Below are positions 6,194-51,279 of a DNA stretch of 51,279 nucleotides, one piece after another. The stretch comes from Chiloscyllium plagiosum. Taxonomy: Eukaryota. The DNA lies in NCBI RefSeq assembly GCF_004010195.1, contig NC_057753.1, positions 4,570,900 through 4,622,178 of the forward strand, given 5' to 3'. The notes under the pieces were generated by a model. It saw only the letters and a list, made by a program, of their open reading frames with translations, had not been told where the DNA came from and made no database searches. Positions within the stretch are counted from its first letter, which is position 1, and each line of letters begins with the position of its first letter. A program made the position numbers and the translations under genes.

Positions 6194-6348
6194 GCTGCCA
6201 GCACAGGCAGAGGAACTCCTCATCCAGGAGACTGACCACCAACCAGCCAAATGGAAGAACCCTCTCCAGAGAGCACAGGAGGCCCAGGTTAGACCCAGCT
6301 TATAAAGAGTTCAACTTTGCCCAGGAGCTCCGCAAATACCCACCTTCA
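6194..6348 (+). CDS. Internal coding exon of a TPX2-like gene (CQHRQRNSS...LDPAYKEFNFAQELRKYPPS)
   Basis: Acceptor cttctttccacag|G, donor TCA|gtaagt, open frame, phase 1 to 0. YKEFNFAQELRKYPPS matches recalled human TPX2 [16 protein letters not shown]. Confidence 0.85.
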
Positions 6349-6595
6349 GTAAGTGATGCAGCATTTCTTTGGTTCCTCTTGATTCAATGCACTGCATTCA
6401 AGATGAGGGACAATCTATCTCCCTCTTTAAGATTGATTTGGATTAATCTCTAGCAGACTACATAATCAAGTCATTTGCCACGTCACTTTTCATACAATGA
6501 CCAGCCCAGTCTGACTATCACTAAGACTACAGTGACCCTCTAAGGTCCCCTCTCCCACCACCTCCTTGCATTTCCCATCTACCTAGCCTGCACAT

Positions 6596-7052
6596 AGTCA
6601 GATGTACAGCACAGAAACAGACCCTTCAGTCCAACCCGTCCACACCAACCAGATATCCCAACCCAATGTAGTCCCACCTGCCAGCACCTGGCCCATATCC
6701 CTCCAAACTCTTCTATTCATATATCCTTCAAATGCCTTTAGATGTTGTAATTGTACCAGCCTCCACCACTTCCTCTGCAGCTCATTCCATACACCTACCA
6801 CCCTCTGTTTGGAAAAAGTTGCCCCTTGGGTCTTATCTTCCCCTCTGACCCTAAACCTATGCCCTCTAGTTCTGGACTCCCTGACCCCAGGGAAAAGACC
6901 TTACCTATTTATCCTATCCATGCCCCTCATAATTTTGTAAACTGCTATAAAGGTCACCCCTCAGCCTCTGATGCTCCAGGGAAAACAGCCCCAGCCTGTT
7001 CAGCCTCTCCCTATAGCACAGGTCCTCCAACCCTGGTAACACCCTTGTAAAT
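6596..7052 (-). mobile_element. CR1 (HER1-like) LINE 3' end
   Basis: Minus-strand VWNEL...EGYMNR peptide and the 3' UTR shared with other copies. Confidence 0.9.
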
Positions 7053-7127
7053 TGAGGAACCCCACACAGACAATGGACTGGCATTTCTTGATTTGCCCCT
7101 CAAGAAACAAGTGCTGGCTTGACCAGT

Positions 7128-7385
7128 ATTGGTAGCACAGTGGCTGTGGTTGGCATATAGCCTCAGTGCCAGGGACCCAGGTTCAATTCCAGCTTCAGGT
7201 AACTGTGTGGAGTTTGCACATTCTGTCTGTGGGTTTCCTCTGGGTGCTCCAGTTTCCTCCCACAGTCCAAAGATGTGCAAGTTAGGGTGGATTGGCTGTT
7301 AAATTGCCCCATCGTGTTAGGTGCATTAGTCAGAGGGAAATGGGTCTGGGTGGACATATTGGGCCAAAGGGCCTGTTTAAACCCT
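7128..7385 (+). mobile_element. HE1-type V-SINE
   Basis: B box ggttcaattcc plus V core. Confidence 0.85.
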
Positions 7386-7874
7386 GTGTCGAGAATCTTT
7401 TCTTAAAAGAAACCAGATCTCTGAGCAATCTCCACACCAATCACCCAAAGGTGGAATTGAACCCAAATCCCTGGGTAACAGATCTTCTTTGCTAAAGAAT
7501 ATCTAGCTAGATAGTCACATAAATAGGCTGCAAAAACCTACAGTGAAGAAAACACTACCCCATTAAAATGGGGTCTTGACAGGAGCAAGGGTCAATACCA
7601 TCTGGGTTTTCTGTGATAGTATATGTATAGTGATTTGAGTAGATAAATATTAAGTTGTATGGGTACAAGTGAGGCCACACTTTCAGCACATTCCTGGACA
7701 CCAGGCAGGAGACTTTAAAATGGATATGATGTTTTCTACCAGATGGTTATGGCCACTGAGGTATCCTGCCACCAAGTTAAGAACTCTGCATTACATATCC
7801 ATCTCCTGATGGATGTTTCTCTATCGGACCTTGGCTCTTTCCTACAACAGAAACAACCCAACTTTCCTTCCACA

Positions 7875-8420
7875 GGGTGTTGAGTAAGAGTTAGCAGGTC
7901 ATCTTACTCCTGTAAGACTTTGGTTCAGCCATGTTTGGAATACTGTGTACAGTTCTGGTCACTACAATTCCCCAAAGGATGTGGATGCTTTGGTGAGGGT
8001 GCAGAGCAGGTTCACCAGGATGTTGCCTGGTGTGGAGGGTGCTAGCTACAAGGAGAGGTTGAGTAGATAAGCATTCCTTTCTTCCTTAGAAAGATGGGAG
8101 GGGGAAGAACCTGATTAAGGTCTACAAAATCAAGGTATAAACCGGGTGGATAGCAAGCAGCTTTTGCACAGTGGGGGACTTAATTACTAGGAACTGAGGG
8201 GAAGTTTAGGGGAGATAGGCAAGGCCTTTACGCAGAGGGTGGTGGTGGCCTGGAATGCATTTGCATTAGAGGTGGGCACTAGTGTCATTTTAAGATCTAA
8301 CTAGATAGATACATGAATAGGCAGGGAGCAAAGGGATACAGACCCTTAAATAGGGCAGGTTTGGATAGAGGACCTGGATCGACAGGCTTGAGGGCTGAAG
8401 GGCCTGTTCCTATGCTGTAA
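7875..8420 (+). mobile_element. Degenerate CR1 3' fragment
   Basis: LEYCVQFWS and RFTRMLPG-like coding remnants. Confidence 0.85.
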
Positions 8421-8519
8421 CTTATCCAGCCTATCTGCAGGGGCAAACTTCAATTTTGAAAACATTCCTGGATAAAATTGTAGATGCTGGAAATCCAATT
8501 GGAGGGGATCAGGATCCAG

Positions 8520-9158
8520 GCCTGATTAGAGTTGAAAAATGTTGCTGGAAAAGCACAGCAGGTCAGGCAGCATCCAAGGAGCAGGAGAATAGATGTTTCA
8601 GGCATAATTCCTTCAGGAATGAGCAAGGTGTGCCCAGCAGGCTAAGATAAAAGGTATGGAGGAGGGACTTGGAGGGGCATTGGGAATGCAATAGGTGGAA
8701 GGAGGTTAAGGTGAGGGTGATAGGCCAGTGGGGGTGGAGGGGTCAGGAAGAAGATCACAGGTCAAGGTGGTGCTGAGTCTGAGGGTTGGGACTGAAGGTG
8801 AAATGAGGAAGCTGGAGAAATGAGTTCATCCCTTGTGGTTGGAGGGTTCCCAGGCAGAAGATGAGGTGCTCTTCCTCCAGGTGTCGTGTTGCCATGTAGG
8901 CGGAAGATGAGGCGCTCTTCCTCCAGGCGTCATGTTGCCTTGGTCTGGCGATGGAGGGGACCAAGGTCCTGCATGTCCTTGGCGGAGTGGGAGGGGAAGT
9001 TAAAGTGTTCTGCCACGGGGCAGTTGGGTTTGTTGGTGTGGGTGTCCCAGAGGTGTTCTCTGAAACATTCCGCAAGTAGGCGGCCTGTCTCCCCAATGTA
9101 GAGGAGGCCACATCGGGTGCAGCGAATGCAATAAATGATGTGTGTGGAGGTGCAGGTG
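8520..9158 (-). mobile_element. Penelope-like element 3' part: GIY-YIG endonuclease remnant plus terminal repeat
   Basis: Minus-strand IIYCIRCTRCGLLYIGETGRLL...VAEHFN...LEEERLIF. Confidence 0.9.
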
Positions 9159-9230
9159 NNNNNNNNNNNNNNNNNNNNNNNNNNNNNNNNNNNNNNNNNN
9201 NNNNNNNNNNNNNNNNNNNNNNNNNNNNNN

Positions 9231-9920
9231 TTGGAAGTGAACTAAGATACTGGTAGGGAGACTTGCTCTAACTGCTCAAGTTGACTTTGACCAGTAAAAG
9301 GGCAGGGTGGGGACCCAGGGAGATCGAGGAAAGGTCTGTTTGAGACTGGTACAGTCAGGAAAGGAGTGAGGGCAGGCAGGGGCAAGGTCAAACAAGAGCT
9401 CTGATAGATTGAACTGTATTCTCTTCAATCGAAGAGGCCTACCAGGGAAGGCAGCTGAACTCTAGTCATGGTTAGGAACATGGGACTGAGATTTCCTAGC
9501 AATTAAATGTGCCTTGGGGAAGGACAGGACTGGCAGCTTAATGTTTCAATTTCCTTCCTATAGGAAGGATGAAGGGGGCAAGAGGGGAGGAGCACTTGTG
9601 ATTAGGGATAACATTACAGCTGCACTTTGGGAGGATATTCACAGGAACACATTCATGCAAATTAGTTGGGTGGAACTGAGAAATAAGGGATCACTTTATT
9701 GGGATTGTATTATAGACCCCTTATAGTCAGTGGGGAAATTCAAACAAATTTGTAACGAGAATTCTTATCTGTAAGAATAACATGGCTATGGAGTAGGATT
9801 TAACCTTCCAAATGTGTTCTAGGACAGCCAGTGTTAAGGGATTGGATGAATTGAAGTGTACAAATTTTGTTTCAGTATATGGATGTGCTTAGTAGAGAAG
9901 TCAATCTTCCTTGGGCAGGG
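9231..9920 (+). mobile_element. Degenerate CR1 ORF2 endonuclease region
   Basis: YRKDEGGKRGGALVIRDNITA...WVELRNKG. Confidence 0.8.
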
Positions 9921-10765
9921 CAATATAAATACTTGGTCAGTCACATCAACAGAGACAAACACCAGCGCTTTCTTCCATCAAACTTTCCTTTCTGGGATGG
10001 GGACATCACCAGCAAGGTAGTGTTTGACTGTTAGACACGAGTGGAAGTAATGCCATTCAGCCCAGCAAGTCCATTCCAACACTTAATCATAGCTGGGCAT
10101 TTCAACTCCACTCTCCCCATAGCCCTTAATTCTTCAAGAATGTATCTATCTCTGCCATGAAGACATGTCCCAGCCTCCCCTGCACTCTATGGCCGTGAAT
10201 TCCACAGGTCTACCACTCCCTGGCTGAAGAAAGGTCTCCTCCTCATTTCCGTTCTAAAATGACCCCCTCTAATTCCAAAGCTCTGCCCATTGATCCCAGC
10301 CTAATGGAAACAACTTCCCAGCATCCAGCTCTCAGCCAGTGTCTATCCCTTTCAGCTGTAATGTGGGGTGGGATGAGCTATTCTATATCACTGCAGTCAT
10401 CCACGAATAACCACCATGCTGTTAACAAGTTCCAGGAATTTGTAACCTCAGTGCCACTGAGTCAGCTTTAAGTCATGATGGTGAGGAGCTTTCTCTTATT
10501 TGGAAGATCCTATCAAACTTTGAGTTAGTGAATTCCTCATCGTCAAACTTCAGAGGCCATCTCCATCTCCAGGAGTTAATATTTGGTCACCTTTGTCTGT
10601 GTCTCTTGACATTGTTTGCCTTGGGTGTAAGTCACCTGAGGCTGAACTCTAAGTGTGGCTATCAAATGGGCATGTCTTCCAGGCAGAAGACTGCTTCAAT
10701 CACTAAGTGCAAACTGCTCCTGCTCTCTCCTGATGTGTGCCTTCCCTCTTGCCTCCCTGCTGTAG

Positions 10766-10924
10766 ACTTACATTTTCCAGGGTTGCACTGTGCCAAAGCC
10801 ATTCAAACTATCTGGGCAATGGATCCAAAGGAAAGACATGGGGACACCATTCGTGCCAATGGCTGAATTCATTAACAGATTCGAGTATCGAACTAGAGGA
10901 GGCAGAGCACAGTACAAGCACTGA
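10766..10924 (+). CDS. Last coding exon of the TPX2-like gene (TYIFQGCTVPKPFKLSGQWIQRKDMGTPFVPMAEFINRFEYRTRGGRAQYKH*)
   Basis: Long pyrimidine tract ending ctgtag|A; phase 0 matches the previous exon. GCTVPKPFKLS and FVPMAEFINRFEYRT match recalled TPX2 [11 protein letters not shown] and [15 protein letters not shown]. TGA at 10922-10924, donor CAG|gtacaa after 10932. Confidence 0.85.
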   Translation, partial: TYIFQGCTVPKPFKLSGQWIQRKDMGTPFVPMAEFINRFEYRTRGGRAQYKH

Positions 10925-10996
10925 GGTTCCAGGTACAACATCACTTCGCTTCACTTGTATCCACCTCCCAAGTAACTAGATGGATTGCCCCTTTTG

Positions 10997-12775: not shown

Positions 12776-13482
12776 GTTTCATGACTAAGCTGTTTGATTC
12801 CCAGATCAGAAATGCAAATGTTGCTATCAGTTATCAGGATTTGATCCCATGTCCTTCAAAAGCCAAGCTTTTATTAGTCATGACATTATCACTGTAGCAT
12901 TACATCACCACATGGTAGGCAATGGGACCACTCCCATGATCCTCTATTCCCTTGGCTTTTAATAAAAGCCTGGCTTTGCTTTGAACATGTAATGACCCAG
13001 TCTCAACAGTTCTGTGGTAAAGAATTTGACAAACCCTGGGTGAAGATGTTCTCATCTGTCTGACCCCTTTTATTCTGAGATAATGTGCTCTGTCCCAGAC
13101 TCAATGGGGAAATGGTCTTCCCAGATTGTTGGAGACTTGACGTGGCCAATTTTTTTGCATGTTTAAAGGTTCCATCATTCTATACTCCAAGTACAGAGGT
13201 TCACCAGGATGTTGCCTGGTATGGAGGGCACTCTCTATGAAGAGGCTGTGTAGATTCTGATTACTTTCATCACAAAGCCAGAGGTTGAGGGGAGGCACCT
13301 GATTGAGGCCTACAAAATGAGTTAGGATGGATAGTAAGAAGTTTGTCAGGACAGCCTCCAGTCTGGACATCTTTGGCTTTTAAGGAGCTCCAATGTTCTG
13401 TATTCTATCCAATGTGTTACACAAGCAAACCTTTACTGAACACCTTTGTTTTGTTTCCCCCCCCCCTCTCTGGCACTCACAG

Positions 13483-13800
13483 GAGCAAAATGGCTTCCGA
13501 AATGACAAGATTGGAAAATGCTGGACAGTCCAAAGATGTTTTTAGCCAGTTGTGATCAGTTACTGATTCTCTTTCTCTTGCATTGCCTGACTAGTGTGGG
13601 GGGGGGGGGGAGAAACCCCCCTAACTTGTTACAGCATGCCTCTCCCTGACATTTTGCGCTCGAGCTCAAATTCAAATGGTTTGATGCTGATTCTGTTTCT
13701 CCTCTTCCATTTCCCCCCTCCCCTAAGTTGTTGTAAATTACCTACAAATTTAAATGTTTGGAATTATTTTTATATCAATAAAAGTTTGGCATTAGCTCTG
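13483..13800 (+). other. Probable terminal (3' UTR) exon of the TPX2-like gene
   Basis: Strong acceptor (ttgttttgtttccccccccctctctggcactcacag), non-repetitive sequence, AATAAA at 13777-13782 and a downstream GU/U-rich tract at about 13799-13818. Confidence 0.65.
13767..13782 (+). terminator. Polyadenylation hexamer AATAAA with an adjacent CPE-like TTTTTAT
   Basis: Sequence attatttttatatcaataaaag followed by tgtcctttgttgctttttg. Confidence 0.6.
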
Positions 13801-22234: not shown

Positions 22235-22526
22235 TTGTGGAAGAAGGCCGTTCAGCCCATTGGGGGCACACTGACCAGACAGAGAGCATCCATCCAGACT
22301 GACCACCACAGGACAGTTCAGCGTGGCCAATCCACCCTAACCTGCACAGGGGGTGGCATGGCCTCAGGTAGCCTTACTAGCCCAACACTGGCTCCCCTGC
22401 TGTGCTGCATACACATCCCTGCGATGGTTTACCCCTAACCTGCGAGAGGACAGTCGCCCGAGACTGGGCTCGAACCCGGGTCCCTGGCATCGCCAGGCAG
22501 CAGCGCTAACCGGCTGAGCCACCGTG
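22235..22526 (-). mobile_element. Rearranged HE1-type SINE at the upstream edge of the CpG island
   Basis: Reverse-complement head (gctcgaacccgggtccctgg...gagccaccgtgc) and tail. Confidence 0.8.
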
Positions 22527-22723
22527 CGGACCCCACAGGCACACTCACACTCACCTCTGTATTGGTTGGGGGGGGGGATTGTATCCGCGAAGCCGCTTGG
22601 CCCCGCCCTCCTTCAGACGCCGCGCGGGGGGGGGGGCCCACCCCCTTCCTTCAGATTCGTCGGTTCTTGTCGATCCAAAGAAGGGGGGGGGGCGGAGCGA
22701 GAAAGAGAGCGCGCGGAGCCTCC

Positions 22724-22737
22724 GTTGCCATGACAAC
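22724..22737. promoter_or_regulatory. RFX X-box motif GTTGCCATGACAAC
   Basis: One mismatch from the palindromic X-box GTTGCCATGGCAAC, about 150 bp upstream of the ATG. Confidence 0.7.
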
Positions 22738-22884
22738 CACCGGCCCTTTGGAGGCGGGGAAAGAGGCCACCACCCGCGCAGGCGTAGACCGCCGGCGGTT
22801 CGTGAGCGAGCGGGCGCGCGGAGGGCAGCGCGCAGGCGCGGGGTGAGGCCCATTGTTGGACGTTGCCCGAGGAGGAGGAGGAGG

Positions 22885-22942
22885 ATGGCGGCGATGGCCG
22901 GGGCCGGGGCTCTGCTTCCTCCTCCCAGTCCCGCCGCGTCAG
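22885..22942 (+). CDS. First coding exon of an unidentified gene (MAAMAGAGALLPPPSPAAS)
   Basis: aggATGG Kozak context inside the CpG island, donor CAG|gtaact, phase 1. Confidence 0.75.
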
Positions 22943-24030
22943 GTAACTCTGGAGGTTAGCGACGCCGCGCGATCGGTTGGAGGCTCGTCGGGGACGCTGG
23001 GGTGGGGGGGGTGTGCGGTGGAGTGGAGTGAGGGGGGTTGCACCATGTANNNNNNNNNNNNNNNNNNNNNNNNNNNNNNNNNNNNNNNNNNNNNNNNNNN
23101 NNNNNNNNNNNNNNNNNNNNNNNNNNNNNNNNNNNNNNNNNNNNNNNNNNNNNNNNNNNNNNNNNNNNNNNNNNNNNNNNNNNNNNNNNNNNNNNNNNNN
23201 NNNNNNNNNNNNNNNNNNNNNNNNNNNNNNNNNNNNNNNNNNNNNNNNNNNNNNNNNNNNNNNNNNNNNNNNNNNNNNNNNNNNNNNNNNNNNNNNNNNN
23301 NNNNNNNNNNNNNNNNNNNNNNNNNNNNNNNNNNNNNNNNNNNNNNNNNNNNNNNNNNNNNNNNNNNNNNNNNNNNNNNNNNNNNNNNNNNNNNNNNNNN
23401 NNNNNNNNNNNNNNNNNNNNNNNNNNNNNNNNNNNNNNNNNNNNNNNNNNNNNNNNNNNNNNNNNNNNNNNNNNNNNNNNNNNNNNNNNNNNNNNNNNNN
23501 NNNNNNNNNNNNNNNNNNNNNNNNNNNNNNNNNNNNNNNNNNNNNNNNNNNNNNNNNNNNNNNNNNNNNNNNNNNNNNNNNNNNNNNNNNNNNNNNNNNN
23601 NNNNNNNNNNNNNNNNNNNNNNNNNNNNNNNNNNNNNNNNNNNNNNNNNNNNNNNNNNNNNNNNNNNNNNNNNNNNNNNNNNNNNNNNNNNNNNNNNNNN
23701 NNNNNNNNNNNNNNNNNNNNNNNNNNNNNNNNNNNNNNNNNNNNNNNNNNNNNNNNNNNNNNNNNNNNNNNNNNNNNNNNNNNNNNNNNNNNNNNNNNNN
23801 NNNNNNNNNNNNNNNNNNNNNNNNNNNNNNNNNNNNNNNNNNNNNNNNNNNNNNNNNNNNNNNNNNNNNNNNNNNNNNNNNNNNNNNNNNNNNNNNNNNN
23901 NNNNNNNNNNNNNNNNNNNNNNNNNNNNNNNNNNNNNNNNNNNNNNNNNNNNNNNNNNNNNNNNNNNNNNNNNNNNNNNNNNNNNNNNNNNNNNNNNNNN
24001 NNNNNNNNNNNNNNNNNNNNNNNNNNNNNN

Positions 24031-46988: not shown

Positions 46989-49900
46989 ACACAATTACTC
47001 TCTCTCACACGTGTACTGTCTCACTCCCGGACCGTCCGGGGCATGTACAATTACTCTCTCTCACACGTGTACTGTCTCACTCCCGGACCGTCCGGGTCAT
47101 GTACAATTACTCTCTCACACGTGTACTGTCTGACTCCCAGACATGACCAGGACGGTCCAGAAGTCAGACAGTACACGTGTGAGAGGGAGTAATTGTACAT
47201 GACCGCTCGGTCCGGGAGTCAGACAGTACACGTGTGAGAGAGAGTAATTGTACATGACCCGGACGGTCCGGGAGTCAGACAGTACACGTGTGAGAGAGAG
47301 AGAGTACGTGTACATGACCCGGACGGTCCGCAAGTCCGACAGTACAGGTGTGAGAGAGAGTAATTGTACATGACCCGGACGGTCCGGGAGTCAGACAGTA
47401 CACGTGTGACAGAGAGTAATTGTACATGACCCGGACGGTCCGGGAGTCAGACAGTACACGTGTGACAGAGAGTAATTGTACATGACCCGGACGGTCCGGG
47501 AGTCAGACAGTACACGTGTGACAGAGAGTAATTGTACATGACCCGGACGGTCCGGGAGTCAGACAGTACACGTGTGACAGAGAGTAATTGTACATGACCC
47601 GGACGGTCCGGGAGTCAGACAACTGTCTGACTCCCGGACCGTCCGGGTCATGTACAATCACTCTCTCACACCTGTACTGTCTCACTCCCGGACCGTCCGG
47701 GTCATGTATAATTACTCTCTCTTACACGTGTACTGTCTGACTCCTGGACACGTGTGAGAGAGAGTAATTGTACATGAACCAGGCGGTCCTGGAATGAGAC
47801 AGTACACGTGTAAGAGAGAGTAATTGTGCATGACCCGGACGGTCCGGAAGTCAGATAGTACACGTGTGAGCGAGAGTAACTGTACATGAAGCGGACGATC
47901 CGGGAGTGAGACAGTCCACGTGTGAGAGAGAGTAATTGTACATGACCCGGACGGTCCGGGAGTCAGACAGTACACGTGTGAGAGAGAGTAATTGTACATG
48001 ACCCGGACGGTCTGGAAGTCAGACAGTACACGTGTGAGCGAGAGTAATTGTACATGAAGCGGACGATCCGGGAGTGAGACAGTCCACGTGAGAGAGAGAG
48101 AGTAATTGTACATGACCCGGACGGTCTGGGAGTCAGACAGTACACGTGTGAGAGAGAGTAATTGTGCATGACCCGGACAGTCTGGAAGTCAGACAGTACA
48201 CGTGTGAGAGAGAGTAATTGTACATGAACCGGACGGTCCGGGAGTCAGACAGGACCGTCTGGTACAATTACTCTCTCTCATACTTGTACTGTCTGACTCC
48301 CTGACCGTCCGGGTCATGTACAATTACTCTCTATCACACGTGTACTATCTGACTCCCAGACCATCCGGTTCCTGTACAATTACTCTCTCTCACACGTGTA
48401 CTGTCTGACTCCCGGACCGTCCGGGTCATGTACAATTACTCCCTCTCACACGTGTACTGTCGGACTCCCGGACCGTCTGGTTCATTTACAATTACACTCT
48501 CTCTCTCACACGTGTACTGTCTGACTTCCGGATCCGGGTCATGTACAATTACTCTCTCTCACACGTGTACAGTCTGACTCCCGGACCGTCCGGGTCATGT
48601 ACAGTTACTCTCTCTCACACGTGTACTGTCTGACTTCCGGATCCGGGTCATGTACAATTACTCTCTCTCACGCGTGTACTGTCTGACCTCCGGATCCGGG
48701 TCATGTACAATTACTCTCTCTCACACATGTACTGTCTGACTCCCGGACCGTCCGGGTCATGTACAATTACTCTCTCTCACGCGTGTACTGTCTAACTCCC
48801 GGACCGTCCGGGTCGTGTACAATTACTCTCTCACACGTGTACTGTCTGACTCCCGGACCGTCCAGGTCATGTGCAATTACTCTCTCACACATGTATTGTC
48901 TGACGCCGGGACCGCCTGGGGCATGTACAATTACTCTCTCTCACACGTGTACTGTCTGACTCCCGGACCGTCTGGTTCATGTACAATTACTCTCTCTCAC
49001 ATGTGTACTGTCGGACTCCGGACCGTCCGGGTCATGTACAATTACTCTCTCTCACACGTGTGCTGTCTGACTCCCGGACCGTCCGGTTCATGTACAATTA
49101 CTCTCTCTCACATGTGTACAGTCTGACTCCCGACCGTCCAGGTCATGTACAATTACTCTCTCTCACACGTGTACTGTCTGACTCCCAGACCATCCAGGTC
49201 ATGTACAATTACTCTCTCTCACACGTGTACTGTCTGACACCCGGACCGTCCGGTTCATGTACAATTACTCTCTCTCACACGTGTACTGTCTGACTCCCGG
49301 ACCATCTGGTTCATGTACAATTACTCTCTCTCACACGTGTACTGTCTGCCTCCCGGACCGTCCGGGTCATGTACGATTACTCTGTCTCTCACACGTGTAC
49401 TGTCTGACTCCCGGACCGTCCGGGTCATGTACAATTACTCTCTCTCACACGTGTACTGTCTGACTCCCGGACCGTCCGGGTCATGTACAATTACTCTCTC
49501 TCACACGTGTACTGTCTGACTCCCGGACCATCCTGTTCATGTACAATTACTCTCTCTCACACGTGTACTGTCTGACTTCCGGATCCCGGGTCATGTACAA
49601 TTACTCTCTCTCACACGTGTATTGTCTGACTTCCGGACCGTCCGGGTCATGTACAGTTACTCTCTCTCACATGTGTACTGTCTGACTCCCGGACAGTCCG
49701 GGTCATGTACAGTTACTCTCTCTCACACGTGTACTGTCTGACGTCCGGACCGTCTGGGTCATGTATAATTACTCTCTCTCACATGTTGACTGTCTGATTC
49801 CCGGACCGTCCGGGTCATGTACAATTACTCTCTCTGACACGTGTACTGTCTGACTCCCGGACCGTCCGGGTCATGTACAATTACTCTCTCTCACACGTGT

Positions 49901-51279
49901 ACTGTCTGACTCCCGGACCATCCTGTTCATGTACAATTACTCTCTCTCACACGTGTACTGTCTGACTCCCGGAACGTCCGGGTCATGTACAATTATTCTC
50001 TCTCACACGTGCACTCTCTGACTCCCGGATCGTCCGGTTCATGTACAATTGCTCTCTCACACGTGTACTGTCTGACTCCCGGACCGTCCGGTTCATGTAC
50101 AATTATTCTCTCTCACAAGTGTACTCTCTGACTCCCGGACCATCCTCTTCATGTACAATTACTCTCTCTCACACTTGTACTGTCTGACTCCCGATCGTCC
50201 CGGTCATGTACAATTACTCTCTCTCACACGTGTACTGTCTGACTCCCGGACCGTCCGGGTCACGTACAATTACTTTCTCTCACACATGTACTGTCTGACT
50301 CCCGGACCGTCCGGTTCATGTACAATTGCTCTCTCTCACACATGTACTGTCTGACTCCCGGACCGTCCGGGTCATGTACAATTACTCTCTCTCACACGTG
50401 TACTGTCTGACGCCCGGACCGCCTGGGGCATGTACAATTACTGTCTCTCACACTTGTACTGTCTGACGCCCGGACCGCCTGGGGCATGTACAATTACTCT
50501 CTCTCACACGTGTACTGTCTCACGCCCGAACCGTCTGTGTCATGTACAATCACTCTCTCACACATGTGTACTGTCTGACTCCCGGACCGTCCGGGTCATG
50601 TACAATTACTCTCTCTCACACGTGTACTGTCTGACTCCCAGACCGTCTGTGTCATGTACAATTACTCCCTCTCACACATGTACTGTCTGACTCCCGGACC
50701 GTCCGGGTCATGTACAATTACTCTCTCTCACACGTGTACTGTCTGTCTCCCGGACCATCCGGGTCATGTACAATTACTCTCTCACACACGTGTACTGTCT
50801 GACTCCCGGACCGTCCGGGTCATGTACAATTACTCTCTCTCACACATGTATTGTCTGACGCCCGGACCGCCTGGGGCATGTACAATTACTCTCTCTCACA
50901 CGTATACTGTCTGATTCCCGGACCGTCTGGTTCATGTACAATTACTCTCTCACACACGTGTACCGTCTGAATCCCGGACCGTCCGGGTCATGTACAATTA
51001 CTCTCTGTCACACGTGTACTGTCTGACTCCCGGACCGTCTGGTTCATGTACAATTACTCTCTCTCACACGTGTACCGTCTGAATCCCAGACCGTCCGGTT
51101 CATGTACAATTACTCTCTCACACGTGTACTGTCTGACTCCCGGACCGTCCGGGTCATGTACAATTACTCTCTCTCACGCGTGTACTGTCTAACTCCCGAC
51201 CGTCCGGGTCACGTACAATTACTCTCTCACACACGTGTACTGTCTGACTCCCGGACCGTCCAGGTCATGTACAATTACT
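46989..51279. repeat. Satellite/minisatellite array with a ~56-bp unit, about 75 copies, mixed orientation, running off the window end
   Basis: Unit catgtacaattactctctctcacacgtgtactgtctgactcccggaccgtccgggt read directly. Confidence 0.97.

Follow-up and report, generated by a model that had tools for sequence, protein, structure and literature searches.

TPX2 is the closest described relative of the gene considered here, and animals are said to have one TPX2 gene (PMC7139753). In the human protein, a ridge (residues 300-311) and a wedge (residues 323-341) have been delineated, and a fragment spanning residues 274-370 (TPX2-micro) binds guanylyl-(alpha,beta)-methylene-diphosphonate (GMPCPP) microtubules alone, with F307 and F334/H335 required (PMC5679754). 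In Xenopus TPX2, importin-alpha is bound with high affinity at two sites, the nuclear localisation signals NLS1 and NLS3 (PMC8390506), and branching requires the C-terminal half of TPX2 (PMC5379942). The Aurora-A, lattice-binding and branching functions of TPX2 have so far been separated only by engineered fragments. Here we describe a short TPX2 paralogue of the bamboo shark Chiloscyllium plagiosum, found in a stretch of 51,279 nucleotides (RefSeq assembly GCF_004010195.1, contig NC_057753.1, positions 4,570,900 to 4,622,178 of the forward strand), hereafter the window, to which all plain coordinates refer. Judging from its sequence, we think it rather probable that this gene is an intact, intron-containing duplicate of TPX2 cut down to the central part, which would likely bind and stabilise the microtubule lattice via its ridge and wedge under weaker importin control. 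It is a real, old and database-predicted variant of TPX2 that is apparently undescribed, as literature searches, which did not cover subscription journals, found no paper on a shark TPX2 paralogue among the titles listed.

Several described proteins share parts of this design. TPX2-micro has the same lattice-binding module with little after it, but the shark gene is natural, and its protein carries some 170 extra residues N-terminally, a long helix among them, and ends sooner (PMC5679754). Zebrafish sinup, likewise short and from a fish, has a TPX2 homology motif and is found on spindles (PMC6138333). In Arabidopsis, the TPXL group A proteins (TPXL2, TPXL3, TPXL4 and TPXL8; PMC7139753) are TPX2 paralogues that have likewise lost the C-terminal Xklp2 domain. 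Ridge-like and wedge-like elements have been predicted outside TPX2 in FAM161A, a remote homologue with three ridge copies, whereas the shark gene is a direct TPX2 duplicate (PMC7551519). With vertebrate TPX2 itself (human 6BJC chain T, Xenopus 3KND chain B and the full-length gene of this genome) the shark gene shares colinearity over human residues 188-347, intron phases, F307 and F334. However, it is about one third as long, is without the Aurora-A domain, PF12214, PF06886, the FKARP-type repeats and the Eg5 tail, and has a changed NLS1 in most species.

The preliminary description of this DNA had proposed two phase-compatible exons of a TPX2-like gene, with which splice ends, phases and TPX2 matches agree. 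Both exons, spliced here by coordinate, have AG/GT ends; the first enters in phase 1 and leaves in phase 0, and the second enters in phase 0 and contains the stop codon. The features on the window are as follows.

6194 to 6348, plus strand: coding exon 5 of the short gene; its 155 nt run from phase 1 to phase 0, as do the 158 nt of its equivalent, canonical exon 7.
6301 to 6342, plus strand: YKEFNFAQELRKYP motif (YKE motif), placed by alignment to human TPX2 directly 5' of the ridge.
6349 to 10765, plus strand: predicted GT-AG intron, with position and phase (0) as in canonical TPX2.
10766 to 10932, plus strand: coding exon 6, which encodes the ridge, the linker and the wedge and holds the stop, equivalent to canonical exon 8 (178 nt); sequence backed by DNA runs X1 and X3.
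10781 to 10813, plus strand: ridge equivalent (human 300-310), 8/11 residues identical to human, with the F307 equivalent at 10802-10804.
10817 to 10825, plus strand: QWI, aligned to human residues 313-315, where the NLS1 region that binds importin has the basic triplet KKR.
10847 to 10903, plus strand: wedge equivalent (human 323-341), 6/17 aligned residues identical, F334 kept (10880-10882) and H335 replaced by E; a low-confidence helix in the structure model.
10922 to 10924, plus strand: TGA stop, 8 bases 5' of the last splice donor.
13483 to 13782, plus strand: last exon, 3' untranslated region here, with 19/21 residues like the C. punctatum C-terminus but out of frame; AATAAA at 13777-13782.

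Searched singly, both exons matched human TPX2 (6BJC chain T) best in the PDB, weakly and at adjacent positions: TPX2 263-293 for exon 6194-6348 (E 0.11) and TPX2 297-339 for exon 10766-10932 (E 0.2). The RefSeq model P0001 (195 residues), which joins both exons, matches TPX2 195-339 at E 6e-14, placing the joined peptide in the TPX2 family, and a profile of 8 relatives matches TPX2 at E 5e-27. A protein search with the second exon gave two candidates, both labelled 'targeting protein for Xklp2-like': P0001 from C. plagiosum (195 residues, 100% identical) and P0002 from C. punctatum (268 residues). Given that P0001 is identical and named 'TPX2-like', the gene is already predicted by RefSeq. 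A separate full-length TPX2 is present at G000:C20:2425834-2464153, so that the short gene is indeed a paralogue, as had been supposed. The second exon has a single match across the genome, as befits a single-copy gene.

Upstream of the window there are three further coding exons, at distances of 2.5, 14 and 21 kb. The first coding exon sits on the unplaced contig C29584 (1266 bases; L045:442-547) and by its phase fits ahead of the first placed exon, close to a gap of the assembly; the 195-residue RefSeq model thus seems to be without 43 N-terminal residues. The motif of this first exon may be homologous to TPX2 exon 2: its phase fits and one of six pairwise tests is positive (1/1000 shuffles), but the profile is negative. 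Altogether the short gene has six coding exons and 238 open codons, with the RefSeq model as their final part. Its exon phases are those of canonical TPX2 exons 2, 3 and 5-8, and the lengths (short/canonical) are 103/103, 57/93, 137/137, 155/158 and 167/178 nt, so that it arose by duplication at the DNA level. A retrogene is ruled out by the intron phases common to both TPX2 genes.

What has been lost is equally well delimited. Canonical exon 1, which encodes the Aurora-A-binding part, is not matched by any coding exon of this locus, and neither are exons 9 onward nor canonical exon 4 (114 nt; phase 2 at both ends; KKAK at the NLS3 place), of which the matching intron held no remnant. The missing Aurora-A exon and, in C. 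plagiosum, the missing NLS3 exon were beyond the view of the preliminary description. At the protein level, the Aurora-A-binding domain PF09041 was found in 0/9 short sequences at E <= 0.1 (ray TPX2 control E 0.0013, just under the curated cut-off), TPX2_importin PF12214 in 0/9 (ray control E 2.6e-45), the C-terminal TPX2/Xklp2 domain PF06886 in 0/9 (ray TPX2 control positive) and FKARP-type repeats in 0/8. With no counterpart of exons 9 onward and no PF06886, the C-terminal half is missing, as first described. We also considered a split gene with its second half nearby and rejected it: the 300 kb around the locus held no C-terminal TPX2 match and PF06886 matched solely on C20, these searches being lower bounds. 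Across the genome, PF12214 matched C20 and gave one sub-threshold match besides, at G000:C98475:15518-15769 (E 0.065), which contains a stop and has no TPX2 match by tblastn.

The short gene belongs to a family of sharks and rays. Rhincodon, two Scyliorhinus species, the sevengill shark Heptranchias, the ray Mobula and C. punctatum also have short relatives, making seven species with both Chiloscyllium, and the proteins have 243-289 residues (excluding a 5'-incomplete model). After the wedge they continue for only 9-42 residues with unconserved tails, compared with 409 in ray and goose TPX2. The core reading frame is open in 7/7 species, and mean pairwise identity is 0.80, 0.72, 0.59 and 0.57 in the motifs against 0.35 and 0.28 in the linkers, which speaks for conservation and not for neutral decay. 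Among the columns conserved in long TPX2s, 16/45 are invariant in the short family, versus 16/88 of the others (p = 0.033; columns gapped in any short row were dropped). In addition, eleven columns are fixed in at least six of the seven short proteins and nearly absent from long TPX2s. Four whale-shark isoform models differ in exon use. RefSeq builds isoforms from transcript evidence, so that these models point to transcript support.

A tree was built from 19 rows and 154 columns without an outgroup; in it the short proteins form one clade (100/100) whose inner branching follows the species, placed beside shark and ray TPX2 (93/90, not starred). By approximately unbiased (AU) tests, trees that join the short family to sequences of teleosts, Polypterus or salamanders remain acceptable (p 0.074, 0.115 and 0.053, respectively). 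Sharks and rays split about 270-300 million years ago. Given the absence of an outgroup and the unrejected alternatives, the duplicate is at least as old as this split. No chimaera or short bony-fish member was among the matches, a weak negative because the searches were word-based or used clustered sets. Two Heptranchias models on one scaffold (P0011 and P0023) differ by substitutions and a gap, which suggests two tandem copies. Separately, long 'TPX2-like' models of two salamanders and Polypterus (P0019/P0026, P0021/P0028 and P0006/P0010) have no Aurora-A-binding match; vertebrates may hold further TPX2 duplicates, and these salamander and Polypterus models stand apart from the shark family in the free tree.

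As the preliminary description had claimed, equivalents of ridge and wedge are both present. The ridge is invariant at 7/13 positions in the short family and retains F307 in 7/7 species; wedge residue F334 is kept in 6/7. By analogy with human and Xenopus TPX2, the protein would resemble an engineered TPX2-micro extended at the front; it would be expected neither to switch on Aurora A nor to recruit Eg5 or initiate branching nucleation. The form in carpet sharks may be largely free of importin-alpha and thus active away from the Ran-GTP gradient. A use in the germ line or early embryo would be a guess from the analogy with zebrafish sinup.

Weaker importin control is suggested by the basic motifs. 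In the 238 residues there is no K-K/R-x-K/R, KRK or KRH, compared with three in canonical exons 1-8. The altered KKR claimed at the outset is real in C. plagiosum, where QWI takes its place, but it does not extend to the whole family: KKR still follows the ridge in Heptranchias, and in S. canicula a KRK stands at a shifted place.

Several observations weigh against a lattice binder with relaxed importin control. H335 is replaced by E in 6/7 short species and by Q in one, and the human F334E/H335E double mutant binds worst, although E was not assayed singly (PMC5679754). On the other rows of the alignment, H335 is absent from all 11 long non-human sequences, and one long goby TPX2 has E there. 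The wedge shares only 5/19 residues with this genome's own TPX2, whereas shark and ray TPX2 share 17/19, and the branches of the short gene are about five times those of canonical shark TPX2 (about 1.2 versus 0.13-0.22 changes per column). TPX2-micro itself binds weakly (PMC5679754), and Xenopus TPX2 1-480 was not localised to branched microtubules in extract (PMC5379942). As to importin, it still bound a triple NLS mutant at 410 nM (PMC8390506), and the KKR of Heptranchias implies that importin escape is not ancestral. Finally, neither exon had a read (0) in X5, the sole RNA run with reads, a single-cell run of which about 2/100 was covered and whose tissue is not named; its 408 reads all fall on repeats, run X6 had none, and the 6348/10766 junction lies outside the covered stretch. 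This is no test of germ-line expression.

The preliminary description also held that the protein ends immediately after the ridge and wedge. Over exon 10766-10932, DNA runs X1 and X3 show no differing letter and no gap, which rules out an assembly error at the stop; the two runs belong to a single study, and the assembly itself may derive from the sample of X1. X3 departs from the assembly at three intron positions close by, but nowhere within the exon. Under the 50-base rule for nonsense-mediated decay, a stop 8 bases before the last donor should escape this pathway. In C. punctatum the frame crosses the donor at 10932 into the last exon, the equivalent of which lies here at 13483 and is out of frame; exon 10766-10932 is 5 bases longer than the C. 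punctatum frame would need. One whale-shark isoform enters the apparent last exon in a third frame, and other isoforms read into the intron. Because the relatives thus carry 13-42 residues after the wedge motif in differing frames, only the loss of everything conserved past the wedge is common to them. Conservation does end at the wedge, but the exact stop is specific to C. plagiosum. In the same region, one X1 contig joins the flanks of 13342-13690 with 129 letters versus 349 in the assembly, which may reflect a deletion allele that covers the beginning of the last exon. Positions 13450-13569 have no depth in X1 and X3, for which a filter could also be the cause.

A bolder scenario can be drawn for sharks and rays, which we regard as possible but rather doubtful. 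Stepwise stripping, first of the Aurora-A exon and the C-terminal half, then of NLS3 and finally of NLS1 in carpet sharks, would have produced a dedicated, Ran-independent microtubule stabiliser. It might serve very large oocytes or early embryos, where the chromatin Ran gradient reaches little, in parallel to teleost sinup, and the helix and YKE motif would be a functional site of TPX2 itself.

In the likeliest of the alternatives, the long helix and the YKE motif would carry the function in place of the wedge, and the gene would have been retained for some task apart from lattice binding, such as that of a decoy or adaptor competing with TPX2 for a partner. No block of the short family is better conserved than the YKEFNFAQELRKYP (YKE) motif (8/14 columns invariant in seven species), which lies outside the resolved ridge and wedge. 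The structure model is mostly disordered (mean predicted local distance difference test score 59), with helices at P0001 residues 58-89, 133-138 and 175-185; helix 58-89 is its only confident part, and the wedge helix (175-185) is of low confidence. The ESM Atlas gave no usable match to the short protein. The eleven columns specific to the short proteins, as well as the H335E replacement and the diverged wedge, would fit such a role too. Against this, 7/13 ridge positions are invariant and F307 is present in every species, and truncation always comes just past the wedge, as if nothing beyond it were needed. We therefore consider a decoy or adaptor unlikely.

A further possibility, functionally compatible with lattice binding, is that the short gene is the orthologue of zebrafish sinup, i.e. 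an already known duplicate that predates the split between sharks and bony fishes. Sinup, which is short and related to TPX2, is located on centrosomes and spindles (PMC6138333) and rises with ovary genes (PMC3488064), and the tree, which has no outgroup, leaves the teleost, Polypterus and salamander groupings standing under the AU tests. Nevertheless, the free tree puts the short family beside shark TPX2 (93/90), and sinup has a bipartite NLS (PMC6138333), whereas the bamboo shark protein has no such motif. Nor did a sinup-named or short teleost protein appear among 6 matches/398 candidates, 8/7998, or 16 in 1.84 billion representatives, a negative that is weak because the searches need shared words or use clustered sets. 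Orthology with sinup is thus, in our view, distinctly unlikely. That a once-functional duplicate is now decaying in bamboo sharks, or is a partial pseudogene, is very improbable: the long Chiloscyllium branch, the frame change near the end, the possible deletion allele over the last exon and the lack of RNA reads on the exons would fit it, but the six exons have GT-AG ends and together give 238 open codons, the shift of frame comes past the last conserved residue, seven species keep the frame, and the three differences of X3 all fall in introns and none in the exon.

That a natural, central-module-only version of TPX2 has been kept in sharks and rays shows that this module is worth keeping alone. 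The family moreover offers a graded series, from the sevengill with KKR through catsharks to carpet sharks without it, for testing whether lattice binding, with which the importin site overlaps, can be separated from importin. Two conserved elements N-terminal to the ridge stand out as well, to neither of which the literature consulted assigns a role in TPX2.

With regard to genomic surroundings, a BCL2-family gene lies 30 kb from the full-length TPX2 on C20, and none of the 13 BCL2-family matches is on C44, the contig of the short gene. The human gene order is BCL2L1-TPX2. As to whether the short gene could be an ohnologue of TPX2 from whole-genome duplication, lying on a chromosome paralogous to that of TPX2, XK-related and syndecan genes mark C3, C4, C20 and C27, and none is on C44. 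Pfam matched 0/103 among the best 103 of 150 ranked candidate frames in the 300 kb around the short gene. Elsewhere in the genome, a processed pseudogene fragment at G000:C18:13712210-13712608 (minus strand) is an intronless, frameshifted copy of the first four canonical TPX2 exons, 85-91% identical. Within the window, 22440-23050 is a GC-rich island with a possible short first exon (plus strand) before a gap, and 47100-51279 is a long array of short repeated units, visible in the translations.

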